Part shown: one piece after another, positions 4,001 through 62,875 of the stretch
Layout: the number at the start of each line of letters is the position of its first letter
How positions within the stretch are numbered: position 1 is the first letter of the stretch
From: Eubacteriales bacterium
GTDB lineage: Bacteria; Bacillota; Clostridia; Christensenellales; CAG-917
Assembly: GCA_035449045.1 (NCBI GenBank)
Contig: DAOTKC010000002.1
Location: 30,192-94,191, forward strand
Direction of reading: 5' to 3'
DNA length: 64,000 nt
Notes under the pieces: generated by a model
Told to the model about the DNA's origin: nothing
What the model saw: only the letters and a program-made list of their open reading frames with translations
Database searches by the model: none
Made by a program: the position numbers and the translations under genes

Positions 4001-4077
4001 CTGGGTGTGGCGCAGCTTGGTAGCGCGCTTGAATGGGGTTCAAGAGGCCGGAAGTTCAAATCTTCTCACCCAGACCA
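4001..4077 (+). tRNA. tRNA-Pro (anticodon GGG), CCA encoded
   Basis: Hand-folded cloverleaf. Acceptor CTGGGTG/CACCCAG, D-stem GCGC/GCGC, anticodon stem CTTGA/TCAAG with loop AT-GGG-GT (G37 typical of tRNA-Pro), T-arm GGAAG-TTCAAAT-CTTCT, then discriminator A plus CCA. Confidence 0.9.
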
Positions 4078-4149: not shown

Positions 4150-4263
4150 GGATTTATGCATTTTGGGCTATTTTTAGGCTGCACTTTTAGGTTGCACTTT
4201 TAGGCTGCACTTTAGGCTGCACTTTTAGGCTGCACTTTAGGCTGCACTTTAGGTTACAATTGT
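4150..4263. repeat. Tandem 12-13 bp array AGGCTGCACTTT(T), six well-conserved units plus degenerate flanking units
   Basis: Units start at 4176, 4189, 4202, 4214, 4227 and 4239, with degenerate units at 4150-4175 and 4251-4263. The units are contiguous, with no spacers. Confidence 0.9.
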
Positions 4264-11755: not shown

Positions 11756-14254
11756 TTGGAAAAAAGTAATCAAGCTTCGATTTACGTCGCCTTCAGGTTC
11801 CACGTCAACTTCTATCATTCCTATCGGGGCGACACGCCCGACGAAAACGGGATAGGGAAAGATATCAGAATAATTCGCTATATTCTGGACACCTTGGACA
11901 GCCGGAACGCTTGCGGCGTGCCCGCCATGGGAACGTGGGATATCGAAAACTATTATTCGCTGGAAAAGCTGATGAGAAAGCACTGCCCCGAGCTTATCGA
12001 GCGGATACGGCAGCGCGCCGCTTCGGGAGTGGACGAAATCGAGATAATGAGCTATAACAACGGCCTCGTTTCGGCGCACACCGAGGAAGAATTTTTCAAG
12101 ATGATGGAGCTTACGCGCCACAACCCCGAGGGCTCGGGGCTATCCGACATCTTCGGCGAGTTCGCGCCCATCGTCCGTTCCCAGGAGTGCATGATGACTC
12201 CCGCCCTCGTTCCCCTCTATAAAAAGGCGGGTGTCGAGGCCATCACCATGTTTTACAGCGCCATACCCTTCAACGGCTTCAGCAACTTCGTGCCGCTCCT
12301 TCCCCTCGAAAAAAGGTATAACCCGCTTTGGTATCGCGCGCCCGGCCGCGAGGAAAAAATCATTCTCATGCCCTGCATAAACCCCGCCGACATGTATGAC
12401 AATCTCGGCCTTTCCATGATGATAAGAAGCCTTCGCCGCGGCCAGCTAAAGCTGAAAGAGCCGACGGATTTGCTCTTGACCATCGACATGGACGCCGACG
12501 ACCTGTTCTGGGAGGGCTATCTCAACACTGCGGTTTCCTACGATTTGTTGAAGAGGAAAACTCCGCTGATAAAGGGCGGGCTCAACTTGTTTATCAACAA
12601 GCTGAAGGACATTCCCTACGTTAAATTCACCACGCCCTACCGCTATTTGAAGGAGCATCCGCCGGCAGGCGAAGCGGTCTTCGGCCAAGATACCATGGAC
12701 GGCTGCTTCGACGGTTTCGCGCCTTGGTCGGATAAACTCGAAAACGCCAAGCTCTGGACGCCGATTGAGCGTTCCCGCCTCCTTGTCGAATACGCGCGCG
12801 CCGCCGCGCCCGGCGAGTCTACGGAAAAGGCAGTTGCCGAGGCTTTGAAAAACCGCGTTCTGACGCTCTCCACCACCCACTTCGGGCTATCGACGCCCGT
12901 AATGTGCAAGCCTAGGCTTATTCAGGCCTATCACAAGGCGCTGACGGCGCTTACCGACTCCGAACGCATTTTGAAAGAGGCTTTGCAAAATAAAAAGGAC
13001 GGCGTATATTTCCAAAAGAAATACCTGAGAAATACGCCGAAACAGGGGTTGATACGCATAAATCGTGACGATAAAACGCCGATTGCGGAAATAAACGAAA
13101 ATAATACCGCCGTTTTTTCAAGGAATGTTTTCGGCCGCGCCGAAAGCGATATTATCTACTCGGGGAGCGACGATTATATAAGCGTGGAGGATGCCGCGCA
13201 GGCTGTTAAAGCTCCATCCGCTCTCGCCGCGGGCAAGGATTTCATCAAAAACGGCAGAATCGAGCTTAAAGTAGAAAACGGCGAGCCCGTCCTCTATCTC
13301 GACGGCAAGCGGAAGAGCTCGGCGGGCTCCTTCAGAACATCGTTGAATTACGGCGGAGTGGTTTACTCCGGCCGGTCGGAATATGCCTGCAAGCTGATTG
13401 AGGGCAAAGCGGCGATTATGACGGAGAATGGAGCCATAAAGTTCGGCGAGGAACTTGAGCATACCGCCGAATACTCTAAGCAATATATGATTGCGGGCGA
13501 ACTTCCCTACATTTACGCCGATGTCGACGTTTCCTATCCCATGACGCCCGATTTCGGCGTCAAGCCCAAAAAGGCGGCGAGACTAAGGCGCGGCTACGAT
13601 TTAAGATGGCGGGAGGTCATGCCGCTTGAGTTGATTCCTTCATTCAGGGGAAGCGAAAAAGCGCCCGTTCGCGTCATCAAGCACAACTTCTTCGGTGACG
13701 TCAGCTATTTCGATTACGACTACGGCAAGTTCAGCAAAAACGCCGAGTTTGACTCAAGTAACAACGCGCTTACGGCGGGTTTCGTCGCCTTTTCGGCGGG
13801 AGGGGAAGGTATGCTTCTCGCCCAGTCGGCGGCGGCGGACAACAAGTTTTCCTTCTGTCCCGTCCGTATGAGAAAGGAAAAGGGCGCCGATAAGCTGTTT
13901 CTCAACCCCTTCGGCGCCTACTTCGGCAAGCAGCTCGACTATGCCGCAGCAAAAACCGGCCTTGCCATGAAGATGACCCTTGCCCAAGCCGAGCAGTTCC
14001 TTCCCTCGGCGTCCTCCTATCGCGGCGGGCGCCAGCAGTTTTCGCTGATGATAGCGCCGTTTTCGGGTGAGCTTTCCGACTCTCTCATTAACGACGCGCT
14101 GCTTCACGCCTATCCGCCGCTGGTGCTAGCGAACGGCCAAAACGCCACCGTCGGTTTTACCGATTGGTTCAACGCCGAGCCATTGGACGCTTCTCAGCTT
14201 TCCGAGGAAGACGCCAAGCTTCTTTCCGAGCTTAACGAGTTAAGCTCGAAATGA
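11756..14254 (+). CDS. Large protein of unknown function (832 aa) embedded in the hexuronate operon; possible glycoside-hydrolase/deacetylase-fold N-terminal domain
   Basis: Long clean ORF with TTG start 7 nt after GAGGAG. The N-terminus FRFHVNFYHSYRGD ... IEIMSYNNGL ... SQECMMTP is reminiscent of GH57/GH38-type (beta/alpha)7 barrels, but I cannot confirm this by eye. No signal peptide. Confidence 0.75.
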   Translation: MEKSNQASIYVAFRFHVNFYHSYRGDTPDENGIGKDIRIIRYILDTLDSRNACGVPAMGTWDIENYYSLEKLMRKHCPELIERIRQRAASGVDEIEIMSYNNGLVSAHTEEEFFKMMELTRHNPEGSGLSDIFGEFAPIVRSQECMMTPALVPLYKKAGVEAITMFYSAIPFNGFSNFVPLLPLEKRYNPLWYRAPGREEKIILMPCINPADMYDNLGLSMMIRSLRRGQLKLKEPTDLLLTIDMDADDLFWEGYLNTAVSYDLLKRKTPLIKGGLNLFINKLKDIPYVKFTTPYRYLKEHPPAGEAVFGQDTMDGCFDGFAPWSDKLENAKLWTPIERSRLLVEYARAAAPGESTEKAVAEALKNRVLTLSTTHFGLSTPVMCKPRLIQAYHKALTALTDSERILKEALQNKKDGVYFQKKYLRNTPKQGLIRINRDDKTPIAEINENNTAVFSRNVFGRAESDIIYSGSDDYISVEDAAQAVKAPSALAAGKDFIKNGRIELKVENGEPVLYLDGKRKSSAGSFRTSLNYGGVVYSGRSEYACKLIEGKAAIMTENGAIKFGEELEHTAEYSKQYMIAGELPYIYADVDVSYPMTPDFGVKPKKAARLRRGYDLRWREVMPLELIPSFRGSEKAPVRVIKHNFFGDVSYFDYDYGKFSKNAEFDSSNNALTAGFVAFSAGGEGMLLAQSAAADNKFSFCPVRMRKEKGADKLFLNPFGAYFGKQLDYAAAKTGLAMKMTLAQAEQFLPSASSYRGGRQQFSLMIAPFSGELSDSLINDALLHAYPPLVLANGQNATVGFTDWFNAEPLDASQLSEEDAKLLSELNELSSK

Positions 14255-14374
14255 ATAATGAATAATGAATAATGGTGGATGGCGGACGATAAACGCTCAA
14301 CGAAAAACGAAAAACGGCGGAGCGGCGCTAAGGCGCCGAAAGAAAACGATAAACGAATAGCGGTGGAAAAAAAT
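14250..14374 (+). repeat. Dispersed heptad-built intergenic element, copy 1
   Basis: GAATAAT x3, GGTGGAT, GGCGGAC, GATAAAC, GCTCAAC, GAAAAAC x2, then hairpin CGGCGC-TAAG-GCGCCG (14323-14338), then a second A-rich CG-punctuated tract. It shares 25 identical nt with copy 3. It begins inside the stop codon of the upstream gene. Confidence 0.85.
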
Positions 14375-15421
14375 ATGAAGCTGACGTTCAGATGGTTCGG
14401 CGAGAACGACGCCGTTCCCATAAAGTATATAGCGCAAATTCCCGGCATCTACGGCGTGGTAACGGCGCTCTACGGCATTCCCGCGGGCGAAATTTGGCCG
14501 CTCGACGCCATATCAAAGCTTAAAGGCGCGGCGGAGTCACACGGCCTTGCCGCCGAGGTAATCGAGAGCGTGCCTGTCCACGAGGATATTAAACTTGGAC
14601 TACCGTCGCGCGACAGATACATCAAAAATTACATCGAAACGTTGAAAAATTTAGGCGCCGCCGGCTTTAAATGCGTTTGCTATAACTTTATGCCCGTGTT
14701 CGACTGGGTCAGGACAGACTTAAAATTGAAAAACGCCGACGGCAGCACATCCCTCGCTTACCGCGAGGAGGAGATAAGAAAGCTCGACAAAAACTCGCTT
14801 TCGCTCCCCGGCTGGGATGAAAGCTACACAAAAGAGGAGCTTTCCGGCCTTCTTGAAAGCTACAATGCGGTGACGCCTCGAAAGCTCTTTGAAAACCTCG
14901 TCTATTTTTTGGAAGCGCTTATGCCCGCCTTAGAAGAAACGGGCATAAACATGGCAATCCATCCCGACGACCCGCCTTGGGAAATATTCGGCCTTCCCCG
15001 AATTATCTCGGCCGAGGATGGCTTAGATAAGCTTTTCGCCGCCGTCCCGAGCAAGCATAACGGCCTCGCTTTCTGCACCGGCTCTCTGGGCGCGAAGAGA
15101 GCAAACGACCTTCCGCGCTTGGCAAAAAAATATGCAGAAGCAGGCCGAATTCATTTCGCGCACTTAAGAAACATTGCATATGACGGTGACTTAAGTTTTC
15201 GCGAGACGGCGCACAATTCTGCCTCGGGCTCGCTCGATATGTTCGTCATCGTGTCGGCGCTCGTTCGGGGCGGCTTTTCGGGCTACGTGCGTCCCGACCA
15301 CGGCCGCAACATCTTCGGAGAGGAGGGCAAGCCGGGCTACGGCCTATATGATCGCGCTCTCGGTGCCGCCTACCTCAACGGCCTTTTCGAGGCCGCCGAA
15401 AAAATGGTTGCGAATAGCTAG
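14375..15421 (+). CDS. uxuA: Mannonate dehydratase
   Basis: MKLTFRWFGENDAV start typical of UxuA, plus CYNFMPVFDWVRTDL, HPDDPPWEIFGLPRI, CTGSLG, FAHLRN and RPDHG. I chose ATG 14375 (RBS GGTGGA) because the ORF-track start 14279 lies inside the repeat element. Confidence 0.9.
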   Translation: MKLTFRWFGENDAVPIKYIAQIPGIYGVVTALYGIPAGEIWPLDAISKLKGAAESHGLAAEVIESVPVHEDIKLGLPSRDRYIKNYIETLKNLGAAGFKCVCYNFMPVFDWVRTDLKLKNADGSTSLAYREEEIRKLDKNSLSLPGWDESYTKEELSGLLESYNAVTPRKLFENLVYFLEALMPALEETGINMAIHPDDPPWEIFGLPRIISAEDGLDKLFAAVPSKHNGLAFCTGSLGAKRANDLPRLAKKYAEAGRIHFAHLRNIAYDGDLSFRETAHNSASGSLDMFVIVSALVRGGFSGYVRPDHGRNIFGEEGKPGYGLYDRALGAAYLNGLFEAAEKMVANS

Positions 15422-27596: not shown

Positions 27597-28916
27597 ATGG
27601 AAAGAAAAATTGTGGTAGCGGGAGCGGGACACGGCGGACTTACGGCGGCTGCGTATTTGGCGGAGCAGGGCTTTGCGGTCGAGGTCTACGAGATGAAGCG
27701 GCGCGAGGAGTTGGGCTACGACTGGCACGACACCATCGACAACCGCACTTTCGAATATGCCGGCGTTGATTTTGACATGAGCGAGGCGAGCTTAAGAAAG
27801 CATTCCAGCTTTTTCGCGCCTTCGCTTAATACCGAAGTCGCCTTTGACACGCCGCCCGAAAGCAGGGAAATAGAGGTCGAGCGAAAGACGATTTACCGCT
27901 ATCTACTTAAAAACGCCGAAGACAAGGGCGCAAAACTTTATTTTTCAAAAAAAGTAACCGCCCCACTTATTAAAAACGGCGCTGTCAAGGGAATAATCGC
28001 GGGCGGAAAAGAGGTTGAGGCCGATTTGGTGATAGATGCCGCAGGAATGTTTTCCGCGGTTATCCAAGGCCTGCCCAAAAGCTATAATTTGAGGCCGGGC
28101 TTCGGCAAAAACGACGTCTTTCACGCCTACCGCGCCTACTATAACTTAGTAGATGGCGCGGAAATCCCCAACGCCGACCGTTTCAACATCTATTTCAAGT
28201 TCAACGGCCTTTCGGGCATCGCTTGGTTTAAGGAAAACCACGGCATGGCCGACGTCATTGTTGGGAGCGTCGGCGGACTTAATAAGGAGATAATAGCGGA
28301 CACTCTCGAAAAACTGAGAAAAATCCGGCCCGCCATCGGGTTTGAGCTGCTTCGCGGCGGCCAAACGGGCATAATTCCCATTAAATCGGCGCATTCTCTC
28401 TTCGTCGGCGACAATTACGCCGCGACGGGCGACGCCGCCTCCATGCCCATTCCGCTTCGCGGCTCGGGCATAACCAACGCCATAATTTCGGGCAAGATGC
28501 TGGCGGAAACCGTTATAGATATCGTAAAGCGCGGCAAAAATTTCGATATTGCCGAGCTTTGGGACTATCAAGTCAAATTCTACCATGAAATAGGCCGTTC
28601 GCTGGCGCCAGTCGCCATCTTGAAAAACCGCCTGCTCGGCTATTCGGGCAAAACGCTCGACTTTTTGTTCGACAAAAAAATCCTTTCGGCGGCCGAGTTT
28701 TCGGCGGGCTCGGAAGGACGGGAAGTGGTGATGGACAAAGCCGCCGTTCTCGACAAATTGAAAAAGGGCTACACCAATCTTGCCGCGCTGATTACGCTTA
28801 AGGCCGCGGTCAGAAAATCCAAGACGGCGCGCCTTCACGCCGGGAGCATTCCTCTAACTTATCAGAAAGAAGAGGTTGAGCGGTGGAGGAAAAAACTTGA
28901 AAGTTTTTTCAATTAA
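27597..28916 (+). CDS. FAD-dependent oxidoreductase, geranylgeranyl-reductase-like
   Basis: N-terminal dinucleotide fold VVAGAGHGGLTAAAYLAEQGFAVEVYE, and an internal GDAA motif (ATGDAASM). Confidence 0.75.
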   Translation: MERKIVVAGAGHGGLTAAAYLAEQGFAVEVYEMKRREELGYDWHDTIDNRTFEYAGVDFDMSEASLRKHSSFFAPSLNTEVAFDTPPESREIEVERKTIYRYLLKNAEDKGAKLYFSKKVTAPLIKNGAVKGIIAGGKEVEADLVIDAAGMFSAVIQGLPKSYNLRPGFGKNDVFHAYRAYYNLVDGAEIPNADRFNIYFKFNGLSGIAWFKENHGMADVIVGSVGGLNKEIIADTLEKLRKIRPAIGFELLRGGQTGIIPIKSAHSLFVGDNYAATGDAASMPIPLRGSGITNAIISGKMLAETVIDIVKRGKNFDIAELWDYQVKFYHEIGRSLAPVAILKNRLLGYSGKTLDFLFDKKILSAAEFSAGSEGREVVMDKAAVLDKLKKGYTNLAALITLKAAVRKSKTARLHAGSIPLTYQKEEVERWRKKLESFFN

Positions 28917-29105
28917 TAATTAATAATTAATAATGAATAATGGTGGATGGCGGCTTCGCCGAACGAAAAACGAAAAACGCTCGACACAAAACGAGCGGCG
29001 CTAGTGCGCCGAATGAAAAACGAAAACGAAAAAGGAAAAATTTTGGTGAGTTACACGATAAAGGTTTGTCACTCCGAGCGCAAGCGTGAGAGTCCCGCGG
29101 GGCGA
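28911..29105 (+). repeat. Dispersed heptad-built intergenic element, copy 2 (longest), plus an appended GC-rich module
   Basis: AATTAAT x3, AATGAAT, AATGGTGGATGGCGGCTTCGCCGAACGAAAAACGAAAAACGCTCGAC, hairpin CGGCGC-TAGT-GCGCCG (28996-29011), second A-rich tract (29011-29040), then GTCACTCCGAGCGCAAGCGTGAGAGTCCCGCGGGG (29068-29102). It starts at the TAA stop of the upstream gene. Confidence 0.85.
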
Positions 29106-29130
29106 AAACGCCAACAAACAATGGAGAAGA

Positions 29131-29841
29131 ATGAAAATTAAAAGATATAAAAGCGGTGACGAGATTTCCTATGCGCTGGGTATGGCGCCTTTGATTGAGC
29201 TTATAAATAACCGCCCCGAACAGTTGCGGGCGGTGTTTTTAAGCCCGCAGGCGATAGAAAACGAAAACACCGAAAAGGTCTTAGAGCTTGCAAAAGAGCT
29301 CGGTATTTCCGCCGAGAAGAACGACAAAGTTTTCAATATATTGTCCGACAAAGGGAATTGCTTTGCGATAGGCGCATTTGAAATCCCCAAAGATAAAATC
29401 CGTGAAGGCGACCATATCGTGCTTGTCAATCCTTCCGACGCCGGCAATTTGGGCACAATCATGAGGACGGCGGCGGGCTTTGGTTTTTTGGATCTCGCCG
29501 TCATCTCTCCCGCGGCGGATGCCTTCGACCCCAAGACGGTGCGCGCCTCGATGGGCGCAGTTTTTTCGCTGAATATCGAATATTTTAGTTCTTTCGGGGA
29601 TTACCGCGAACGGTTTAAAAATAACAAGCTCTATTCTTTCATGCTTGACGCCAAAAGGACGCTCAGTAAAACCGAATTCACCCCGCCCTTTTCGCTGATT
29701 TTCGGCAACGAGGCGCACGGCCTTCCCGCCGAATTTTCGGGATTTTCCGAGACGGTGGTCATTCCCCATTCCGCCAAAATCGACAGTTTGAATCTGCCGA
29801 TAGCGGCGGGAATCGCGATGTATTTCGTCAAAAACAATTGA
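29131..29841 (+). CDS. TrmH/SpoU-family RNA 2'-O-methyltransferase
   Basis: SpoU motifs: LVNPSDAGNLGTIMRTAAGFG, FGNEAHGL, IPHSAKIDSLNLPIAAGIAMY. I chose ATG 29131 (RBS GGAGAAG). Confidence 0.85.
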   Translation: MKIKRYKSGDEISYALGMAPLIELINNRPEQLRAVFLSPQAIENENTEKVLELAKELGISAEKNDKVFNILSDKGNCFAIGAFEIPKDKIREGDHIVLVNPSDAGNLGTIMRTAAGFGFLDLAVISPAADAFDPKTVRASMGAVFSLNIEYFSSFGDYRERFKNNKLYSFMLDAKRTLSKTEFTPPFSLIFGNEAHGLPAEFSGFSETVVIPHSAKIDSLNLPIAAGIAMYFVKNN

Positions 29842-29965
29842 ATGCCAAAATTTGACAAACTGGTCGGATGCCTTTTAAGGATAGTATCTTGACAAAAATT
29901 ATAGTTTGTCTTAACACTGATGTATGGCATATAATAATGCCGCAATGTTTTTAGGGGGGTTACCT

Positions 29966-32900
29966 ATGTTTAAGAAAATTAAAATTGTCTTTATATTTTT
30001 ACTTATCACGGCGGCGGCGCTTACGCTTTTTGCCTGCAATAAGGATGAGAAATTCACCGTCACGGTGAATTTTATGGTTGATGGCGTGGTTTATGAGACC
30101 GTCACGGTAAATCAGGACAATTTAGTTAATGTCGAATTTCCCGCCGCTCCCGAAAAAACAGGCTACAGCTTCGGCGGGTGGTATTTCGACCAAGAGACGC
30201 TTGAAAACGAGTTCAAGTCGCTTATCGGCTACAACAAAACCGCAACGGTGGAGGTTTACGCCAAATGGGCGCCTCGCAGTTATATCATTACATACGACGT
30301 AAACGGCGGCGAGCCGCTTGAGTCCAACACCCGGATGGCGACTTTCGGCGAGAACACCGTGCTCGAGGTGCCCGAATACGAGGGGTATTTCTTCGCAGGC
30401 TGGTATAACGGAACCGGTCTTGTTTCCGACGGGCCGTGGAGTATACCCTCCGACGTCACCTTGACGGCGGCCTGGACGCCTCAGCCCTTTAAGGCCACCT
30501 TCAATTCGATGGGCGGCGCCGCGGTTGCCGAAATCGAGGGCGGATATATGAGCCCGATTGCCGCGCCCGTCTCTCCCGCTTGGACCGGCCTGACTTTCGT
30601 TAACTGGTTCACCAGCGACGACGGCGGCGTCACTCTTTCGGCGGCGCCCTACGTCTTCAACACCATGCCATTGGGCGGCGTCACACTCTATGCCAAATGG
30701 CAGCTGAACGCGCCCACGGTAACCTCCGATCTTGCCAACTTGACCGAGGTTTACAACGGCGCCAACAGCCTGTCGGTTGCGGCTGCGCACGCCCAGCCCC
30801 AGGCGACGCTCTCCTATCAATGGTTCTATTCCTCGGGCGAAGACTTTGCGCCCGCCTCCAACAACGCTACCGGCAATACAATAGCCGTTTCCGCCGTTTC
30901 GCTATCCGGCGCTTATTACTGCAAAATAACGGCTACCTTCGGGACTTACACGTCCTCGGTGTCAAGCGCCTCTGCGATTGTGACAATTACGCCCAAGCAG
31001 CTTGCACTTACCGGCGTAACGGCGGCAAACAGGCAGTATGACGGCACGACTTCCGTTACTCTTTCGGGCGGCGCGCTTAGCGGCGTGATAGTGGGCGACG
31101 AAGTCGGCTTTACACTGGGCGACGGCACCGTAGCATCGGCAAACGCATTCGAGACGCCCTACGATGTTTCGTTCACGGTCACTCTTACGGGCACCGACAA
31201 AGACAACTATACCTGCCCGCCTCCCGCAGGCGTGACGGCGACCATATCCAAAGCCGACTTCGATATGACGGGAGTAAAAAAAGCTTACAAAGCGTATGAT
31301 GTTATTTATGAATACACCGAACCGATTGTTTATAACGACTACGCCAACATAATTTTGTTGATTGGGTTGCCCCAAGGACTTACTGCGGTTTTTGACGGAA
31401 AACGCTATGGGGCTGTTGGTAAGTTCCAGATTTCATTTACTTTCGAATATGACATCCAAAACTACAACGAGCCTGATTACGAGACGACGTTTGAATTTGA
31501 AATCTTAGGGATTGACCTCCCGATAACCGTCTGGTATTCGGGCGGGCCGCTTATTGTCGGAGATTCTTTGCCGACGCTTTCGTTTTCGGGCGGCATTAGT
31601 ATGTTTGATACGGTGACGCTTGACGCCGGTCAAACGCTTGAAGCGGGCGCGCATGAATACGACTGGACATTTACGCCTTATCTGGACGGGTATGCCCAGA
31701 AGAAAGGCAAGATAACGCTGGTCGTTTTTGCCGAGCCGCCTTTTGGCCTTTCGATAGCGTCACAGCCGAACAAGATGGAATATTATGCGAATGAGGAGCT
31801 GGAAACCGCCGGCCTCGTCGCCAAGTTGGTTTTCGAGACGGCGGAAGAAGTTGAGATTTCGGATTATGAAATCGTCTATCAAACCGATGCGGGCTGTTTC
31901 CAATACGGTGACACTAAGGTCACGATTATGTATGGCGGCCTTTCGGCGGATATAGAGATTACCGTTTTGCAACTTGACTATGAGTTTTCGTATGAGCTGC
32001 CCGAATACTGGTATTCTCACATTGATCTTCCCGAAATATTCGACCATATAGAGGATGGCTATTTTGAGTGGGAAGAGAGGACGGAATGGACGCCGGGCGC
32101 CTATAATACCCCGTTCACCTTCTATCCCGACGATACCAACTATAAGCCTTACCAAGGCGCAACCGAAATCTATTGGTTGTTTCGGGCGGTTAATTCATTC
32201 GAGATATTTGAATCTATATTATTACATATACCCGAAAAGGCTCACGAGATTTACGACCAAATTTGGAGCTACGGCTTTTTCGAGTCCTTTGCGCCCAATG
32301 AATTAAACAATGATTTGTTGGATCTTCTCGGCGTCGAGGACGACACTCTCAGAGTGGAGGTCGATTACCGCGATCTTGAGGTCGTTGGCGACGAGGGCTA
32401 TTTAGTCCTTGAAACTCACCACCAGTATTATGTTACCCTCAGGATTTATGGCTCGATTTATGTCGGCGAGGGCGAGGATGCCGAGCTTGTCGAGTTTTTA
32501 CTGGACACCTTCGGAGCGTGGATGTTCCCATGCCATATGCTAACTGACTATTTGCTCTTGGACAACAGTAACTACCACTATGGCTATTACGAAGTGAACT
32601 CGGAACATCCCGTAATCAGCCTCAATCCCGACTACTGTTTTCCCGAACCGTATTTCACTATTTATATAACCGACCTTGACGGCTCGCAAGACTTCACCCT
32701 TCAAATCGGCGGAAACGATTTGTATATTGTCATCGAATTTGATGATGTATTTGACGAAGCGAGAGGCATTACGATTCACCGGAGTTACCGCACCGCGATC
32801 AATGTTGAATACGATCCTCCCTACTTTAGCGAGTTTAAGGTCAACGGCGTCGAATATAAGGATATCGGCGAGGACGAAGGCTGGAGCTTTGAAATTTATA

Positions 32901-34675
32901 CCGACAGCCCGGAATTTACGCTGAAAGTCGAATATGACACCGAATATTACGTTCTTTTTGATTATTTCGGCGATCCGATTTTGCCCGGTCTGCATACCTT
33001 TATCTACGTTCCTTACATGAATTATTACTACCTGACTGTCGCCGCCAAAAGCGACGAATGTATCGGTGATGAAATATACCTCTATTTCTATCCTTATACC
33101 CACGTAAAAGCGGGCTATGCCCTCTTTGTCGGTGAGGACGAAGACGAAGCGCTTGACATGTATTTCGAGTTCGAATACGGACGGCCGGTATTTTACTTTG
33201 AAAATTATGACCGCCACGGCTTTAAGTGGTTCGATTTCGAGCTCGATGACGGTTATACCTGGAAGATTTACCGTAACGGCGAATTATTCGATGAAAACTC
33301 ACTTGACTACGGCGAAAACTTCTTCGAGCTTCGCGTCTACGACGCTTTGGATAATGTTGTCGAGGTCGTGGAAATTCGGTTATATTTCTCTTTGCCCGAT
33401 TATATCGATGCCGATTGGATGTGGACCGGCGATTTGAAGACGCTTCAATATCTGGCCACGACCGAGGAAGAGGAATATACCGTCCTCCTTGAGCCCTTCA
33501 ATGATTATTATCCCATTTATTCGGTAAACGGCGCCGTCGGGCCTTATCCCGAGGGAGTTGAACTTTCGGGACTTACGCCCGGCTATAACAGCGTCTATGC
33601 CGTTCTTTATTATACCGCCGGCGAGGTAAGCTATTATATCGGCATTGATATGAACATCTATATCGCCGTTCCCGACGTCCGCCAAAAGATTGATGAAATT
33701 GACGGCCGGGGCTTCTATTTGAATCTTAATACATCCGAATGGTCATCCCGGGCTTTCTATTTTTATGATTACGCATTACATGTTGAATTAGACGCCACGC
33801 GGACGCTTGAGGAATGGGCGGAGCAGATGGAGCCGGTCTTCCTCAACAACAATAATCCTACTTATGCCGCCGAAATCAAGTTTAATGACGGACAGTTTGT
33901 TATCGAGTTTTACAAAAACCTCGCGCCGTATTTTGAACTGCCCATTTCGTTCTCGGTCAATGGCGAACATAACGACGACGTTGGGGCGGCAATCTGCTTC
34001 AATGACGATGTAATGCTGTCCGGTTACAGCGAAGTAGAGTTCGACGACGAAAACAATGCCTCGGTCAGCATAACTTCGGGACAATATCTTATCGTCGGAC
34101 TGAGCAACCCCTACGCAAGACTGAAGGTGACCGGATCCGTGATTATCGAAGGCGTTGGCGAGGATACTTGGGAGCTTGAATATTTTGCCGAATACTACGA
34201 AGGCGATTACTGCGGTTTGGGCTATTCCGCTTATTTTTGGTTCGAGTTGGAAGAACATTACGACTACACCGTTGAGATTACCTCAACCTCGGGCGAAGTT
34301 ACCATCACCTACACCTTGACCGTCGATGAAATTTCCCCGGTCGCTTTGTTTGAGGTCGAGTTTGGCGGCATAGTTTATCAAGCGATCTTCGGTAGTTACG
34401 ACAGCGATGTTTACTGGGATGATTACGATGACGTTTGGCTGCTTATTTTCGACCCCTCGCCCGATGTCGAGGAGGGCGACGTCATCACTATAACGGTCAC
34501 CACCGACATTACCGTCTACGACGGAACATTCCATAAACTTCCGAGCGCGGCGTCATATACCTTCGACCTTAAGGTTTATAATTATTACGGAGGATTATTC
34601 GCCTCTTTCTTCCTCGACTATATGGATATGCTTATCTCCGTTACCTTCGACTTTGATAACTCTTATTACGACTAA
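29966..34675 (+). CDS. Giant surface lipoprotein (1569 aa): lipobox, 4 Listeria-Bacteroides (Flg_new) repeats, MBG-like and bacterial Ig-like segments, then a ~900-aa acidic/aromatic-rich region of unknown fold
   Basis: Signal peptide with LFAC lipobox. Repeated GY(S/F)F.GW(Y/F)...(V/L)YAKW units. ITPKQLALTGVTAANRQYDGT...NYTC (MBG-like). SQPNKMEYYANEELETAGLVAKL (Big_3-like). The remainder has no family I recognise and no LPXTG. I chose ATG 29966 (RBS AGGGGGG). Confidence 0.8.
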   Translation: MFKKIKIVFIFLLITAAALTLFACNKDEKFTVTVNFMVDGVVYETVTVNQDNLVNVEFPAAPEKTGYSFGGWYFDQETLENEFKSLIGYNKTATVEVYAKWAPRSYIITYDVNGGEPLESNTRMATFGENTVLEVPEYEGYFFAGWYNGTGLVSDGPWSIPSDVTLTAAWTPQPFKATFNSMGGAAVAEIEGGYMSPIAAPVSPAWTGLTFVNWFTSDDGGVTLSAAPYVFNTMPLGGVTLYAKWQLNAPTVTSDLANLTEVYNGANSLSVAAAHAQPQATLSYQWFYSSGEDFAPASNNATGNTIAVSAVSLSGAYYCKITATFGTYTSSVSSASAIVTITPKQLALTGVTAANRQYDGTTSVTLSGGALSGVIVGDEVGFTLGDGTVASANAFETPYDVSFTVTLTGTDKDNYTCPPPAGVTATISKADFDMTGVKKAYKAYDVIYEYTEPIVYNDYANIILLIGLPQGLTAVFDGKRYGAVGKFQISFTFEYDIQNYNEPDYETTFEFEILGIDLPITVWYSGGPLIVGDSLPTLSFSGGISMFDTVTLDAGQTLEAGAHEYDWTFTPYLDGYAQKKGKITLVVFAEPPFGLSIASQPNKMEYYANEELETAGLVAKLVFETAEEVEISDYEIVYQTDAGCFQYGDTKVTIMYGGLSADIEITVLQLDYEFSYELPEYWYSHIDLPEIFDHIEDGYFEWEERTEWTPGAYNTPFTFYPDDTNYKPYQGATEIYWLFRAVNSFEIFESILLHIPEKAHEIYDQIWSYGFFESFAPNELNNDLLDLLGVEDDTLRVEVDYRDLEVVGDEGYLVLETHHQYYVTLRIYGSIYVGEGEDAELVEFLLDTFGAWMFPCHMLTDYLLLDNSNYHYGYYEVNSEHPVISLNPDYCFPEPYFTIYITDLDGSQDFTLQIGGNDLYIVIEFDDVFDEARGITIHRSYRTAINVEYDPPYFSEFKVNGVEYKDIGEDEGWSFEIYTDSPEFTLKVEYDTEYYVLFDYFGDPILPGLHTFIYVPYMNYYYLTVAAKSDECIGDEIYLYFYPYTHVKAGYALFVGEDEDEALDMYFEFEYGRPVFYFENYDRHGFKWFDFELDDGYTWKIYRNGELFDENSLDYGENFFELRVYDALDNVVEVVEIRLYFSLPDYIDADWMWTGDLKTLQYLATTEEEEYTVLLEPFNDYYPIYSVNGAVGPYPEGVELSGLTPGYNSVYAVLYYTAGEVSYYIGIDMNIYIAVPDVRQKIDEIDGRGFYLNLNTSEWSSRAFYFYDYALHVELDATRTLEEWAEQMEPVFLNNNNPTYAAEIKFNDGQFVIEFYKNLAPYFELPISFSVNGEHNDDVGAAICFNDDVMLSGYSEVEFDDENNASVSITSGQYLIVGLSNPYARLKVTGSVIIEGVGEDTWELEYFAEYYEGDYCGLGYSAYFWFELEEHYDYTVEITSTSGEVTITYTLTVDEISPVALFEVEFGGIVYQAIFGSYDSDVYWDDYDDVWLLIFDPSPDVEEGDVITITVTTDITVYDGTFHKLPSAASYTFDLKVYNYYGGLFASFFLDYMDMLISVTFDFDNSYYD

Positions 34676-40348: not shown

Positions 40349-40927
40349 TTATTCGGGACTAATTTTCGAAAAAACGCAGCCGCAAAAGTTTTGGCGGTAT
40401 AAATTATATTTTTTTGACAGCTCGATTGATTTTTTGTAGCCGTCGTTTTTCTTGAAATCGGATGGCAGATATTTCGGCGAAAGCGACAAGCCTATTGCGT
40501 TGATTTTGTCAGCGTCCTTTAGAGGGCTCAGCGTCAGAGTAGTCGCGAAATAATCAAAATCCCCCGCGGCCTCGGCGGCCGCGCTCAAGCGCAAAGTGTA
40601 ACAAGCCTCGCACCTTTTGCCGCGCTCGGGCTCCTGCTCCAGCCCCGTTGCGGCCTCGTTAAAAAGCTCGGGCATATAGCAGCCGTCGATTGCGTTCAAA
40701 CCGAATATGCTTGAAAACCGCTTCAGCTCCGAAAAGCGCTTTCGATATTCCTCCTCGTTCGTTATGTTGGGGTTGAAAAAATAGGGCGTGGTTTCAAATG
40801 AACCAAGCAAACAATCAAACGCGGCTGAGGCGCACGGCGCGCAGCAACAATGAAGAAGCAGCCTCGGTTTTTTCGCCGTGGCCTTCAGCTCTTCGATTAG
40901 TTTTAATAACTGCCTTTGCGCATTCAT
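40349..40927 (-). CDS. queH: Epoxyqueuosine reductase QueH (DUF208)
   Basis: LLLHCCCAPCAS, RCEACYTLRL and YRQNFCGC cysteine motifs; about 190 aa. Confidence 0.85.
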   Translation of the reverse strand: MNAQRQLLKLIEELKATAKKPRLLLHCCCAPCASAAFDCLLGSFETTPYFFNPNITNEEEYRKRFSELKRFSSIFGLNAIDGCYMPELFNEAATGLEQEPERGKRCEACYTLRLSAAAEAAGDFDYFATTLTLSPLKDADKINAIGLSLSPKYLPSDFKKNDGYKKSIELSKKYNLYRQNFCGCVFSKISPE

Positions 40928-40948: not shown

Positions 40949-41053
40949 AGGCTATTAGCCTTAACCACAGTTTTTCGTTTTTCGTTGAGCGTTTTTCGTT
41001 CGGCGAAGCCGCCATCCGCCATTATTCATTATTCATTATTCATTATTCATTTA
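40949..41053 (-). repeat. Dispersed heptad-built intergenic element, copy 3 (minus-strand orientation)
   Basis: The reverse complement reads TAA-(ATGAATA)x4-ATGGCGGATGGCGGCTTCGCCGAACGAAAAACGCTCAACGAAAAACGAAAAACTGTGG, then hairpin AGGCT-AAT-AGCCT. It shares 28 identical nt with copy 2 and 25 with copy 1. It starts at the trkH stop codon. Confidence 0.85.
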
Positions 41054-42499
41054 TCTTCTTGTCCATGTGCGCGGCGAGAACAGCATGAGAAGAGGGAAAA
41101 TTTCCAGCCTGCCCAAAAGCATGATACCGGACAGCACCAGCTTGGAAAAGTAGGAAAACACCGAAAAGTTGCCCGAAGGCCCTATGATGCCAAGTCCCGG
41201 CCCTACGTTGCTTATCGAGGTCAGCACCGCCGAAAAAGAGACGGCAAAACCGAGGTTGTCAACGGTAACCAAAATGACCGCCGCGATAAATACCAGCACG
41301 TAGACGACAAAATAGGTGTTGGCGCCTCTGACGTCGGCTTCAGACAGCGGTTTTCCGTCCAGCTTTACGGTGTGGACGCTCCTCGGGCTTATGACGCGCT
41401 TGATTTCGGCAAACACCGATTTCAACAAAATAATGAGCCTCGACACCTTGAACCCGCCGCCTGTCGAGGATGCGCATGCGCCTATGAACATGGTTAGCAT
41501 TAGTATAGCCTGCGAAATAGCCGGCCACTTGGTGTAATCGGCCGTCGAAAAACCCGTCGTCGAGCTGACTGTTATCGTTTGGAAGGAGGCGTATCTTAAG
41601 GCTGTTCCGAAGTTTCCGTAAAGGTGCATGATATTTAAAGAGATAAAGAGTATGGCGGCGACGAGATATATCGTATAAAATTTGAACTCAGTGCTCTTTA
41701 CGGCGTCTTTAAATTTTTTCAAAAGAAAGAGATAATATATTGTGAAATTCAGGCTGAAGAGATACATAAAGACGGTCACGACGATATCAACGTAGACGCT
41801 ACCGAAGGCGGCGATGCTTGCGTTCGTGGCGGCAAACCCGCCCGTGCCCGCCGTGCTAAGCGCGACGATTGCCGAATTGAAAGGATCCATGCCGCCTATC
41901 AGCAGAAGAATCATCAATAAAACCGTCATGACGAAATAGATGAGATAAAGAACCTGCGCGCCGAAGCGGACTTTGGAAACCATCTTGCCCAGTTTGGGGC
42001 CGGGGCTCTCCCACTTCATAAGCTGAAATACGGTGGCGTCCGAGGTGGGAAGCACGGCGAGCGCAAGGACTAAAACGCCCATGCCGCCCAGCCAGTGGGT
42101 GAAGCTCCGCCAAAAGAGCACCGATTTATCGAGCGCCTCGATATCGGTCAATATTGTGGCGCCCGTCGTGGTGAAGCCCGACACCGTTTCAAAGATGCAG
42201 TCGACGAAGTTCGTTATCGAGCGGCTGAATAAAAAAGGCAGCGCGCCCAAGACGGAGACCAAAACCCAAGAGAATCCGACGACCATAAAGCCTTCCCGCA
42301 CGGTAATCGTCTTGGTTTTGGGCTTGACGAAGGTAACGAGCGCGGCGGCGGGGACTGCCATCGCCAAAACAGTCCAGAGAAAGGCTAGCGCCGAATTGTA
42401 TTCTTTAAGCCCCAGCGCGATAGCGAGCGGAATAAGGAGCGTCGCCGACACTATGAGAAGAATCTTGCCTATTAAATTAAAGACCATTCTGAAATTCAT
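41051..42499 (-). CDS. trkH: TrkH/KtrB-family potassium uptake membrane subunit
   Basis: 482 aa polytopic protein with repeated pore-loop-like segments (SGFTTTGAT, STAGTGGF, SSTTGFST, ISNVGPGLG). Confidence 0.85.
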   Translation of the reverse strand: MNFRMVFNLIGKILLIVSATLLIPLAIALGLKEYNSALAFLWTVLAMAVPAAALVTFVKPKTKTITVREGFMVVGFSWVLVSVLGALPFLFSRSITNFVDCIFETVSGFTTTGATILTDIEALDKSVLFWRSFTHWLGGMGVLVLALAVLPTSDATVFQLMKWESPGPKLGKMVSKVRFGAQVLYLIYFVMTVLLMILLLIGGMDPFNSAIVALSTAGTGGFAATNASIAAFGSVYVDIVVTVFMYLFSLNFTIYYLFLLKKFKDAVKSTEFKFYTIYLVAAILFISLNIMHLYGNFGTALRYASFQTITVSSTTGFSTADYTKWPAISQAILMLTMFIGACASSTGGGFKVSRLIILLKSVFAEIKRVISPRSVHTVKLDGKPLSEADVRGANTYFVVYVLVFIAAVILVTVDNLGFAVSFSAVLTSISNVGPGLGIIGPSGNFSVFSYFSKLVLSGIMLLGRLEIFPLLMLFSPRTWTRR

Positions 42500-44722: not shown

Positions 44723-44894
44723 ATTTTTTATCCTTTTGCTTTTGTTCTTCTACCGTGCTTTCGGTATAACACTTTGGTATAATATTTCGGTATAACGCTT
44801 CGGGTTTAAATTTAGGTTTACGCTTCGATTCGATAACCGTTAACATTAGTGAAGCAATAATAACCGTTATTATAAACTTAAACCTAGCTAAAAA

Positions 44895-48480: not shown

Positions 48481-48553
48481 TTGCTATGATGGTTTTTGCG
48501 GCGAACGAAAAACGAAAAACGAAATCGCTCAACTTTGGTTGCTATGATTGTTT
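48481..48553 (+). repeat. Dispersed heptad-built intergenic element, copy 4 (core only), bracketed by 15-bp direct repeats
   Basis: TTGCTATGATGGTTT (48481-48495), then a 43-nt core containing GCGGCGAACGAAAAACGAAAAACGAAATCGCTCAAC, then TTGCTATGATTGTTT (48539-48553). Hairpin GTAGGCG-CCG-CCGCCTAC follows (48554-48571). Confidence 0.8.
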
Positions 48554-48644
48554 GGTAGGCGCCGCCGCCTACTCGGTTAATTTTTGCTTTAAGTTTTTTG
48601 TTGGGCGTGTTATCATAATTTTAGAATATTTAGGGCGGTTGATT

Positions 48645-57122: not shown

Positions 57123-57137
57123 CAAATAAACTAAATA

Positions 57138-57216
57138 GAGCAAAAGGGGTGCAGGCCATCCGGCCGGCTGAGATTATACCCGTTGAACTTGTAAGTTAGC
57201 ACTTGCGCAAGGATTT
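57138..57216 (+). promoter_or_regulatory. TPP (THI-box) riboswitch aptamer
   Basis: GGGGTGC...GGCTGAGATTATACCCGTTGAACTTG...GCACTTGCGCAAGGA matches the conserved THI element core (GGGGUGC, CUGAGA, ACCC, GAAC.UG, GCG.AGGGA-like 3' end). Confidence 0.85.
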
Positions 57217-57220
57217 GTTT

Positions 57221-57254
57221 CCACCTTCTTTTGCTTATAAAGGAAGGTTTTTTT
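57221..57254 (+). terminator. Riboswitch expression platform: terminator hairpin that also sequesters the SD
   Basis: ACCTTCTTT (57223-57231) pairs with AAAGGAAGGT (57239-57248, one bulged G) and is followed by T7 running up to the ATG. The 3' arm contains the RBS AAGGAAGG. Confidence 0.7.
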
Positions 57255-58358
57255 ATGTATGTCAACCTTATTTCCGCCGCGCTTCAAAGCTATTTCGACC
57301 CACACGAGCTTTCGGGACAGCTTTTGATTTCGGCAATCGCGATAGCCGCCGCGTTCATAATAACGCTCACGCTCATTTATTTGTTGAAGCGCAAGTGGTT
57401 TGTCAAAGTCCTTGCGGCCGCGCTCGCCTGTTTTTTGGTTTTTTCCGTCGTAGTCATTGCGCTTTCGCTCTCACAGGACTTAAAGGAAAACGCCGAGGAC
57501 TTTCAAAAATATCAGACGGTGTTTGCCATCGGCACTTTCTCGGCGCTTGCCGCGGGATTTGCCTTAGTGGTTATTTTAAAGCGTGCGGCAGGGAAATATT
57601 ATAAGCCCGTCGCCATTTCGGCGGCCGTCGTAATGGCAGCGCTGACGATAGCGTTTTTCGTGATAAGCTTTATCAACAACGCGAGCCCGCTTGCCGAGAG
57701 CTACGCCCTAACCCAAAAATCCCAGCTCTACCTTGCGATAACGCTGTTTACCGCCGTGCTGTTCGGCATACTTATTGTGTCGCTGACAAACACTAAAACG
57801 ACGACCTTTGAAATCGTCTTTGCCGCGGTGTCCATTGCCATGTCCTTCGCGCTTTCTTACATCAGGATTTTCAAGCTTCCGCAGGGCGGCTCGGTTACCT
57901 TCGCGAGCTTGGTGCCCATCGTCATATACAGTTATAAGTTCGGCATAAGAAAGGGCGTGCTTTGCTGCTTTATCTACGGACTTCTGCAATCCTTTCAGGA
58001 CCCGTGGATTGTCCATCCCCTCCAATATTTCCTCGACTATCCGCTCGCCTTCGGCGCCATCGGGCTTTCCGGCTTTCTGCGCGGCAAAATGAAGGATAGC
58101 GCGGCGGCGGGCTTGGGCTTCTTCTCGGCGCTTATCGTCCGCTATCTCTGCCACGCGGCGTCGGGCGCGTTGTTTTTTGGGACTTACGGCGCGGAATTCG
58201 GCGTCGGCGCGGTTGCTTGGGGATTTTTATATAACGCATTCGTTTTTGCCGACGGCGCCATAGCGCTCGTTGCCATCATTCTCCTCATGAACAATCGCGA
58301 GGTGCTCCGGTTCATCTCCCGCGGCGAGGAAAAGCCTCAGGAAACCGCAATCGAATGA
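57255..58358 (+). CDS. thiT: Thiamine ECF-transporter S component (ThiT) domain with a ~170-aa N-terminal multi-TM extension
   Basis: The C-terminal ~190 aa (FEIVFAAVSIAMSFALSYI...GGSVTFASLVPIVIYSYKFGIRKG...LQYFLDYPLAFGAIGLSG...) is ThiT-like. It is preceded in the same ORF by 4-5 additional predicted TM helices. The TPP riboswitch lies directly upstream. Confidence 0.7.
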   Translation: MYVNLISAALQSYFDPHELSGQLLISAIAIAAAFIITLTLIYLLKRKWFVKVLAAALACFLVFSVVVIALSLSQDLKENAEDFQKYQTVFAIGTFSALAAGFALVVILKRAAGKYYKPVAISAAVVMAALTIAFFVISFINNASPLAESYALTQKSQLYLAITLFTAVLFGILIVSLTNTKTTTFEIVFAAVSIAMSFALSYIRIFKLPQGGSVTFASLVPIVIYSYKFGIRKGVLCCFIYGLLQSFQDPWIVHPLQYFLDYPLAFGAIGLSGFLRGKMKDSAAAGLGFFSALIVRYLCHAASGALFFGTYGAEFGVGAVAWGFLYNAFVFADGAIALVAIILLMNNREVLRFISRGEEKPQETAIE

Positions 58359-62764: not shown

Positions 62765-62875
62765 CTCGCGATGCTCGCAGTGAAATTTAGGTTTAGCCCA
62801 AGTGAAATCGCTCGTTCCACTCGCGGTGAAATCTTGCCTTCGCAAGTGAAGTCGCGGCCTCAGGCCGCAATTGTG
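62765..62875. repeat. Four ~20-24 bp tandem units with core CGC(R)(R)GTGAA(A/G)T, plus two short GC hairpins
   Basis: (A/G)GTGAA(A/G)T occurs at 62779, 62801, 62825 and 62845. Hairpins are CTTGC-CTTC-GCAAG (62833-62846) and GCGGCC-TCA-GGCCGC (62854-62868). Confidence 0.7.

Follow-up and report, generated by a model that had tools for sequence, protein, structure and literature searches.

Four intergenic gaps in a 64,000-nucleotide (nt) stretch of an uncultured Eubacteriales bacterium (contig DAOTKC010000002.1, assembly GCA_035449045.1; the whole stretch is hereafter the window) carry homologous copies of one non-coding dispersed repeat built from 7-nt units (heptads). Three copies are full, namely c1 (14250-14374, + strand), c2 (28911-29050, +) and c3 (40949-41056, -), and one, c4 (48481-48553, +), is partial; positions are those of the window, and blocks are given in the sense direction of the genes on either side. 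On balance, and with modest confidence, we favor the view that the element is a lineage-specific heptamer-array repeat, of the kind represented by short tandemly repeated repetitive (STRR) sequences and TAACTGA repeats, which has grown by slippage and fills intercistronic gaps in one orientation, where it would supply stop codons and an A-rich RNA free of terminators. Tolerated filler DNA is a more likely description of it than a regulatory switch.

Homology Between the Copies

Long identical blocks connect the copies: c2 and c3 have 28 identical nt in common (GGATGGCGGCTTCGCCGAACGAAAAACG), c1 and c3 have 25 (AAACGCTCAACGAAAAACGAAAAAC), and c2 and c4 have 20 (CGAACGAAAAACGAAAAACG), and BLAST aligns c2 with c3 at 94.8% identity over 58 nt and c1 with c3 at 85% over 75 nt. 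The four loci and these blocks had been claimed in an earlier sequence-only reading of the same DNA, and direct reading of the window bears them out, with two adjustments: the recognizable core of c2 ends near 29050, the remainder up to 29120 containing just a degenerate inverted arm, and c4 carries a single block (block C, described below).

The similarity exceeds what shuffled sequence yields. The motif AACGAAAAACG, allowing at most one mismatch, occurs at 14 sites against 4.6 expected, a number reached in 0/100 shuffles, and GAATAATGAATAATG, allowing at most two mismatches, occurs at eight sites against 0.22 expected. Period-7 runs of RAYG comprise 10, 6, and 4 units, and runs of at least five units are absent from 100 block shuffles. 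A sequence-only model built from c1-c3 scores these three copies at E = 1e-23 to 1e-28. Applied to the window and about 12 kb of flanking sequence, it otherwise recovers only c4 and, inside c1 and c2, the second or third units; the flanks hold no further copies.

Differences between the copies consist mainly of whole heptads, the alignment gaps being 8-14 nt long and largely insertions or deletions (indels) of one or two heptads. Within c1, a tandem triplication is visible as three 23-nt cores (AATGAATAATGAATAATGGTGGA, AACGAAAAACGAAAAACGGCGGA, and AACGATAAACGAATAGCGGTGGA), 74-83% identical and spaced 42-46 nt apart, and c2 repeats a GC hairpin plus GAAYGAAAAACGAAAA at 50-nt spacing. Because of this mosaicism in a register of 7 and these internal tandem units, slippage or unequal exchange is the probable engine of growth. 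The copies also have the non-repetitive junctions GAATAATGGYGGATGGCGG, GGCGGCTTCGCCGAACG, and AAACGCTCAACG in common, and it is therefore probable that whole composites were copied between loci.

An explanation in which no family exists, and independent slippage-prone simple sequences have become alike by convergence, can appeal to the low complexity of every block and to the frequency of heptamer slippage among bacteria (PMC4692102). We consider it extremely improbable, since distinct heptad types keep one order across the copies, and it is already contradicted by the shared junctions and by the near identity of c2 and c3 over 58 nt.

Anatomy and Gene Context

The block order is fixed in the full copies, running from A to B to C and then to one or two short GC hairpins, and a second A-rich tract, punctuated by CG, is present in c1 and c2. 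Block A consists of three to four (G/T)AATAAT units. Block B reads GGYGGAT-GGCGG, and in c2 and c3 it closes as the small hairpin GGCG-GCTT-CGCC. Block C is made of GAAAAAC, GCTCAAC, and GATAAAC units in variable order. The heptad parse proposed earlier for c1 is correct, as are the hairpins CGGCGC-TAAG-GCGCCG in c1 and CGGCGC-TAGT-GCGCCG in c2 and the different stems in c3 and c4. Tandem Repeats Finder reports period-7 tracts at 14250-14274, 14299-14316, 28911-28941, 28962-28979, 40970-41000, 41020-41051, and 48504-48524. The parts of the copies are as follows.

14250-14374 (+): c1, filling the whole gap from an 832-amino-acid (aa) gene (stop TGA 14252-14254) to uxuA (ATG 14375); three tandem units of ~44 nt
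14253-14273 (+): c1 block A, GAATAAT x3; unit 1 overlaps the stop codon; three-frame stops
14274-14287 (+): c1 block B, GGTGGAT GGCGGAC; Shine-Dalgarno (SD)-like motif
14288-14322 (+): c1 block C, GATAAAC GCTCAAC GAAAAAC GAAAAAC GGCGGAG
14323-14338 (+): c1 GC hairpin, CGGCGC-TAAG-GCGCCG
14339-14367 (+): c1 third unit, AAAGAAAACGATAAACGAATAGCGGTGGA; GGTGGA at 14362-14367 is the uxuA SD sequence
28911-29050 (+): c2 core, beginning in the stop TAA (28914-28916) of an FAD-dependent oxidoreductase gene
28914-28941 (+): c2 block A, TAATAAT x3 plus GAATAAT
28942-28955 (+): c2 block B, with the small hairpin GGCG-GCTT-CGCC at 28949-28960
28962-28979 (+): c2 block C
28978-29011 (+): c2 paired hairpins, the adjacent CGCTCG-N8-CGAGCG and CGGCGC-TAGT-GCGCCG, each terminator-like with a T-rich tract on the opposite strand
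29012-29050 (+): c2 second A-rich unit, AATGAAAAACGAAAACGAAAAAGGAAAAATTTTGGTGAG
29101-29120 (+): c2 candidate degenerate inverted arm, 15/20 complementary to block B (p ~0.004), just 5' of the ribosome-binding site (RBS) of the methylase gene
40949-41056 (-): c3, between trkH (stop TAA 41053-41051) and queH (ATG 40927-40925)
41048-41021 (-): c3 block A, GAATAAT x4
41020-41007 (-): c3 block B, with its hairpin at 41013-41002
41000-40970 (-): c3 block C
40961-40949 (-): c3 hairpin, AGGCT-AAT-AGCCT
48481-48553 (+): c4, partial, block C only, with CGAACGAAAAACGAAAAACG at 48502-48521 and GCTCAAC at 48527-48533
48481-48495 and 48539-48553 (+): direct repeat flanking c4, 15 nt, TTGCTATGAT(G/T)GTTT, 14/15 matching
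48554-48573 (+): hairpin beside c4, GGTAGGCG-CCGC-CGCCTACT
48582-48607 (+): c4 candidate degenerate inverted arm, 17/24 complementary, p ~0.016

All four copies are intergenic (within ~76 kb). The gaps of c1-c3 separate co-directional genes, and c4 lies in the divergent gap between a DUF4434 gene and a mannosidase gene. The first heptad of c1, c2, and c3 contains the stop codon of the upstream gene, in agreement with the earlier observation that the AT-rich heptads start at the upstream stop in three of the four copies, and translation of the copies confirms stops in all three frames at the 5' end of the sense strand. Each copy is oriented like the gene downstream of it, encoding UxuA, a SpoU methylase, QueH, and a glycoside hydrolase family 2 (GH2) mannosidase, respectively; the orientation rule noticed earlier is thus real, within the limits of three to four cases in the window. 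The start codons downstream are those of uxuA at 14375, the SpoU-type methylase gene at 29131, queH at 40927 (minus strand), and the GH2 mannosidase gene at 48645, and the distance from block A to the next start codon is 45-190 nt. In c1, the last core provides the GGTGGA that serves as the SD sequence of uxuA, 7 nt 5' of its ATG. All four downstream genes begin with ATGAA, resembling an ATGAATA heptad; this start is found in 14/48 window genes (post hoc p ~0.007).

Longer open reading frames (ORFs) that cross the element are gene-calling artifacts. Gene callers are misled into a 380-aa "UxuA," an 892-aa "mannosidase," and a phantom ORF of 64 aa, the last called by JGI in c2 only.

Strains, Spacers, and Searches for Further Copies

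Exact-protein matches assign the window to an uncultured species of Clostridia, entered at NCBI as a Eubacteriales, Christensenellales, or Clostridia bacterium MAG (metagenome-assembled genome); the MAG comes from a digester, and the species has been recovered from many metagenomes. Across about ten strain contigs per locus, the number of heptads is identical and every contig carries every copy; one substitution each distinguishes strains in c1 and c2, and the sole change within a heptad is T/G in c2. Empty sites, which the sequence-only reading had named as something to look for, are thus not found among the strains. A phase-variable contingency locus was rejected, as no length polymorphism occurs in these contigs. 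In two strain contigs (L162 and L166), the hairpin beside c4 (48554-48573) carries the inverted loop GCGG on an unchanged stem.

Several short-read contigs end within the element, which implies a multi-copy repeat with further copies in the genome; assemblies of short reads are broken by the element. In a set of 5.8 billion clustered proteins, the closest homologue of UxuA has 68% identity, and no sister species is thus at hand for an empty-site comparison. Distant relatives have 1-30 nt before uxuA, with no heptads and with different neighbor genes.

Gaps between co-directional genes are unusually long in the window: of 38 such gaps, the 30 of at least 40 nt have a median length of 122 nt, with a sense strand rich in A (0.38, vs. 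0.28 for T). The spacers that bear the element (120, 123, and 215 nt) are of ordinary length and have an extreme A-over-T skew. Long A-rich same-strand gaps occur even within the arg and hexuronate clusters. In the other window spacers, autocorrelation at a lag of 7 is lacking (z = 0.6, or 0.3 once other arrays are masked), and the possibility that other A-rich spacers of ~120 nt are decayed copies was rejected for this lack of 7-nt periodicity.

The pattern GGATGGCGGN{5,20}AACGAAAAACG gave 56 matches over 185,579 species-representative genomes, each of them unrelated, coding, or at a conserved Nocardia site; no species-representative genome contains the composite, unless it was left unassembled there. 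A metagenome scan with AATAATGGYGGATGGCGG returned 87 loci, mostly coding matches to (I/M)(V/A)DGG motifs; the source organism was not among them, and the scan also yielded the contig L135 and other heptad arrays. No match was found in viral contigs (two scans), plasmids, or phages, and a protein search with the concatenated translated frames of the element found only the over-long UxuA call.

Related Arrays in Other Clostridia Contigs

With the UvrC of L135 as a starting point, a search reached L185 (Firmicutes MAG, GCA_009781235.1) and L186, and all three contigs are rich in heptad arrays. The correlation of tetranucleotide usage with the window is 0.90 for L135 and 0.85 for L185, compared with 0.95 between two 14-kb segments of the window and 0.69-0.77 for Christensenellales relatives. 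Judged by this similarity and by shared blocks, L135 and L185 are probably related to the source organism. The shared blocks include GAACGAAAAACGAAAAACG (19 nt, also in the window), which stands directly after the uvrC stop in L135; AACGAAA x4.6 in L185; GAATAGCGGTGGA, also in L185, 13 nt identical to c1; and AATGAAAAAYGAAAA, likewise common to the window and the related contigs. The junction of an array followed by GGTGGATG recurs in both as well.

The position and strand of these arrays repeat what is seen in the window. All nine arrays compared (three from the window and six from L135 and L185) have the stop codon of an upstream gene in the same orientation at a distance of 0-19 nt. Their sense strand is the purine-rich one in 9/9, and five overlap the stop or last codons. 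In L135 and L185, the arrays are often paired in inverted orientation about a central segment; such elements recur within 14 kb, and two of ~140 nt in L135 have 83% identity. Between two convergent genes of L135, a central hairpin is enclosed by arrays that are A-rich on the respective sense strands, and a G-rich array (GGGGTTA/GGGGTCA) adjoins the C block. In L185, the GAAAAAC array also occurs inverted beside an RBS.

One of these two elements of L135 lies in frame in the linker of uvrC, just 5' of PDLIVIDGGKGQ, and the UvrC of L186 and that of L185 have different array-derived inserts at the same site. The in-frame inserts of these three probably related Clostridia, all in the linker before PDLIVIDGGKGQ, are as follows.

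L135, 1640-1815: uvrC heptad-array insert
L185, 4150-5010: uvrC heptad-array insert
L186, 2650-2780: uvrC heptad-array insert

The UvrC of L185, at 845 aa, contains two copies of one insert plus 36-nt repeats, and UvrC homologues at 55-73% identity have the empty site with no insert. The building blocks are therefore acquired, lengthened, and exchanged for one another within short evolutionary distances.

Heptad arrays of the RATGGCG type also lie by gene ends, some as inverted pairs, in L074/L106 (8280-8400), L088 (14200-14240), L089 (8440-8540), and L143 (2550-2650), and L074 has more than ten of them in 12 kb. By GC content (0.45-0.62) and tetranucleotide r (0.43-0.63), these contigs seem to have no relation to the window.

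Structure, Signals, and Coding Potential

No Rfam model matched any copy, whether the gathering score was applied or E was relaxed to 1, and sense-strand folding gave z-scores of -0.4 to -2.1 against shuffles, that is, no significant overall fold beyond the small hairpins. A structured RNA or riboswitch is not supported by these two results; four copies are too few for an analysis of covariation. A coding role was rejected, because heptad indels shift the frames and the frames therefore differ between copies.

A scan for intrinsic terminators located a single weak site on the sense strand, in c3, and nothing in c1 or c2. On the antisense strand, it found two sites, both in c2, and none in c1, c3, or c4; c1, which does not pass the scan, has a gap of 7 nt from the stem to the T tract. 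The suggestion that the element acts as an antisense terminator therefore holds for c2, where two hairpin-plus-T sites occur on the opposite strand, but not for the other three copies, and a consistent antisense terminator was rejected. A convincing promoter is likewise lacking: the sigma-70-like matches, with AATAAT as the -10, are marginal (9/12 positions) and are confined to c1 and c2, with no promoter-like site within c3 or c4. The GGYGGA motifs pair with a generic anti-SD sequence at -6.2 to -6.8 kcal/mol, where the median real RBS of the window has -6.4, and 7% of windows in the coding background reach this strength.

Candidate inverted arms, weak and degenerate, are present in c2 (15/20) and c4 (17/24) and absent from c1 and c3 (p = 0.8 and 0.6); nothing flanks c1-c3 like the 15-nt direct repeat of c4; and none of the genes called in the window or in the flanking sequence is a transposase gene. 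The conserved imperfect palindrome of 20-40 nt that defines REP (repetitive extragenic palindromic) sequences and REPINs (REP doublets forming hairpins) is lacking, as the conserved A, B, and C blocks are non-palindromic and the hairpins vary by copy.

Origin and Possible Function

We hypothesize that slipped-strand mispairing or unequal exchange, acting in a 7-nt register, creates the arrays and reshuffles them, and that the composite was copied between gene gaps, perhaps by recombination or by mobilization similar to that of miniature inverted-repeat transposable elements (MITEs). The element would begin at stop codons because it occupies the entire gap between adjacent genes, the gaps before uxuA in the relatives examined, whose neighboring genes differ, being 1-30 nt, and its stop-rich 5' block would render a slight overlap with the upstream gene harmless. 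Within strings of genes, only the sense orientation would survive, since it would end ribosomes reading in and would place no hairpin plus U tract in the transcript. The reverse strand, without such stops, would extend the upstream protein and, in c2 at least, would insert hairpin-plus-U terminators. The effect on the host would be mostly that of a spacer, with c1 incidentally providing the SD sequence of uxuA. If the element is merely tolerated filler, it shows that gaps inside operons can be inflated without loss of co-transcription.

A decaying MITE or minisatellite, as suggested by the sequence-only reading, is the best fit among the earlier proposals in view of the whole-heptad indels, the triplication in c1, the degenerate inverted arms of c2 and c4, and the elements with inverted arms that carry these blocks in probably related genomes, where relatives differ in having them or not, but c1 and c3 are armless and no empty site is known at the four loci. 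Several points weigh against the picture of a slippage-grown filler. The rules of orientation and position come from three to four copies here and six arrays in two contigs. None of the four loci has an empty site, all strains carrying all copies, and transposition leaves no sign in c1 and c3, which have neither inverted arm nor target duplication. A functional element would equally be expected to show a fixed block order and invariance among strains, and would fit equally well with blocks of 13-19 nt identical in other species. The orientation filter is only partly supported, as reversal would give a canonical terminator in c2 alone. Moreover, the element leaves the long spacers of this genome unexplained, the other spacers having no residual 7-nt periodicity.

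Alternatively, the array might be a cis-acting post-transcriptional module, in which the heptads form a multivalent site in a 7-nt register for an RNA-binding protein or the 30S subunit that sets the translation or stability of the downstream message and also uncouples translation from the upstream cistron. The binder could be an S1-, Csp-, CsrA-, or HutP-like protein for single-stranded RNA, or the 30S subunit could use the A-rich tract as a standby site together with the SD-like GGYGGA. The intercistronic insulator or translation enhancer suggested by the sequence-only reading would likewise agree with the three-frame stops, the A-rich, weakly folding sense RNA, and SD-like motifs that equal the median real RBS of the window in strength. 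The spacing of RAYG every 7 nt for up to 10 units, the A-rich sense RNA with no significant overall fold, the three-frame stops at the 5' end, and the invariance among strains all suit this idea, as do the anti-SD pairing energy close to that of the median real RBS and the last c1 unit, which is the actual RBS of uxuA; an equal proposal has been made for TAACTGA repeats (PMC4679880). However, the downstream genes (uxuA, an RNA methylase gene, queH, and a mannosidase gene) are unrelated in function, the distance from element to start varies from 0 to ~90 nt, c4 lacks blocks A and B, and start codons do not follow the SD-like motifs, whose pairing strength is also found in that 7% of the coding background. 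In addition, the GAAAAAC array of L185 also stands inverted beside an RBS, and no candidate binding protein was found. We regard such a module as unlikely, though it is the alternative that we take most seriously. A bolder pair of ideas, that the arrays are the footprint of an unrecognized copy-and-paste process in a clade of Clostridia (with an array of 7-nt units that ends in the conserved motif GGYGGATG, the few bases from a stop to the next gene as target, and the ability to insert in frame into proteins such as UvrC), or that they are a landing platform in a 7-nt register for an RNA-binding protein setting the translation of many operon-internal genes, seems doubtful to us.

Signals read from the other strand or from DNA appear less probable again. 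The opposite strand presents a GC hairpin followed by GTTTTTCGTTTTTCG, and an antisense terminator or insulator, or half of a bidirectional terminator, would account for the two sites in c2 and for the L135 convergent pair, whose arrays around a hairpin have the layout of a bidirectional terminator. Such a role is quite improbable, given that c1 (with its 7-nt gap between stem and T tract), c3, and c4 fail on the antisense strand, that c1-c3 lie between co-directional genes and hence have no antisense gene to terminate, and that C and G interrupt the T tracts every 7 nt. At the level of DNA, the array might serve the gene downstream as a promoter or UP element, with AATAAT as repeated -10-like hexamers, or it might be a series of heptad operators bound by a repressor, on the model of the ribbon-helix-helix omega protein, encoded by plasmid pSM19035, which binds consecutive heptads. 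The weak sigma-70-like matches in c1 and c2 and the orientation towards the downstream gene agree with this, but c3 and c4 have no promoter-like site, an in-register extended -10 and a good -35 are missing, the heptads vary along the array as those of operator iterons do not, and the promoter region of the mannosidase gene lies downstream of c4. We give a DNA-level signal slightly less credence still than an antisense terminator.

Other Features of the Window

Three further intergenic tandem arrays have 13-nt units and look like operator or iteron arrays; they head the list below, and other features follow.

821-917: CAGCTAAAAAATA x6.9
4172-4250: TTTTAGGCTGCAC x6.2, with tRNA-Pro (4001-4077) on one side and the hexuronate gene cluster's promoter region on the other
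44760-44827: TTCGGTATAACAC x3.4
29924-34675: Flg_new/YDG-domain protein, with lengths of 1583, 1569, and 1533 aa among strains
57135-57230 (+): thiamine pyrophosphate (TPP) riboswitch, 52 bits vs. a gathering score of 54.3 bits, E = 2.7e-7, directly 5' of the Thia_YuaJ thiamine transporter gene (57231-58358)
62778-62857 (+): weak match to the Rfam Gut-1 RNA, 35 bits vs. a gathering score of 50 bits, E = 0.0035, in a gap between convergent genes

The length range of the Flg_new/YDG protein suggests variation in its internal repeats.

Comparison With Known Heptamer Repeats and Mobile Elements

The closest parallel is with the TAACTGA repeats of marine Beggiatoaceae, some cyanobacteria, and Bacteroidetes (MacGregor, 2015; PMC4679880). 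In both cases, tandem 7-nt units occupy intergenic sites, mostly forward towards a downstream start, some sets reach into the last part of the preceding ORF, and sets can be split by related heptamers (PMC4679880). As in our element, the forward strand of the TAACTGA repeats has stops in all three frames and the reverse strand is translatable; these sets have no predicted RNA structure, and a role as a protein- or ribosome-binding RNA leader has been proposed by MacGregor (PMC4679880). However, the unit sequence differs, and TAACTGA arrays end a few nt before the start and replace the RBS, whereas the host here is a Firmicute with ordinary SD sequences, several heptads keep a fixed order together with GC hairpins, and composites of 60-90 nt are homologous across loci.

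The STRR arrays of heterocystous cyanobacteria such as Calothrix and Nostoc, associated with the names of Mazel (in 1990) and Elhai (in 2008), are reportedly dispersed intergenic heptamers of several types within one lineage, and are said to embed hairpin-forming small dispersed repeats (SDR). They resemble our element in being dispersed intergenic tandem heptamers of several types per genome, with hairpin inserts and confinement to a lineage. Unlike them, it belongs to another phylum, has no sequence similarity to them, consists of short arrays (2-4 units per type), and gives no sign of nested insertion or an RNA intermediate. Calothrix heptanucleotides are mentioned by Rehm (2015; PMC4692102), and Elhai (2008) is summarized briefly in another paper (PMC5861425).

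Heptamers are generally over-represented among bacterial simple sequence repeats (PMC4692102), and heptanucleotide families are known from Geobacter (PMC2700814). The GGGAATC heptamers of Xanthomonas and the GGGGA(T/C)T heptamers of Nostoc are over-represented by lineage, include some inverted pairs capable of forming stem-loops (Rehm, 2015; PMC4692102), and vary in length and sequence between related species (PMC4692102). The GGGGTTA/GGGGTCA array of L135 resembles them. The Xanthomonas and Nostoc units are G-rich and were studied as formers of G-quadruplexes, in contrast to the A-rich units of the window, which are incapable of forming them. The units found here (GAATAAT, GGYGGAT, GAAAAAC, GCTCAAC, and GATAAAC) match neither TAACTGA, nor CCCCAGT/TTGGTCA/CAACAGT, nor GGGAATC. 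By unit sequence and arrangement, the window family is therefore of the same kind as the STRR and TAACTGA arrays and not a member of those named families.

With MITEs, BOX, Correia, and REP/REPIN elements and Rickettsia palindromic elements (RPEs), the element has in common that it is non-coding, 60-200 nt long, multi-copy, intergenic, and disruptive to assembly, and the elements of L135 and L185 have inverted arms and, like RPEs, are inserted in frame in a gene. In contrast to these classes, c1 and c3 have neither inverted arms nor target duplication, a stable overall fold is lacking, the arms, where present, are themselves heptad arrays, and no partner transposase is known. To our knowledge, the origin and function of intergenic heptamer arrays have been established in no lineage, although such arrays have been noticed for decades among cyanobacteria, with Xanthomonas, Geobacter, and Beggiatoaceae added later. 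As far as the literature surveyed goes, the repeat described here appears to be a Firmicute example of them, and its fixed heptad order with shared junctions, the blocks found in probable relatives, and the empty site in more distant UvrC homologues provide an opening for learning how these arrays form and spread.

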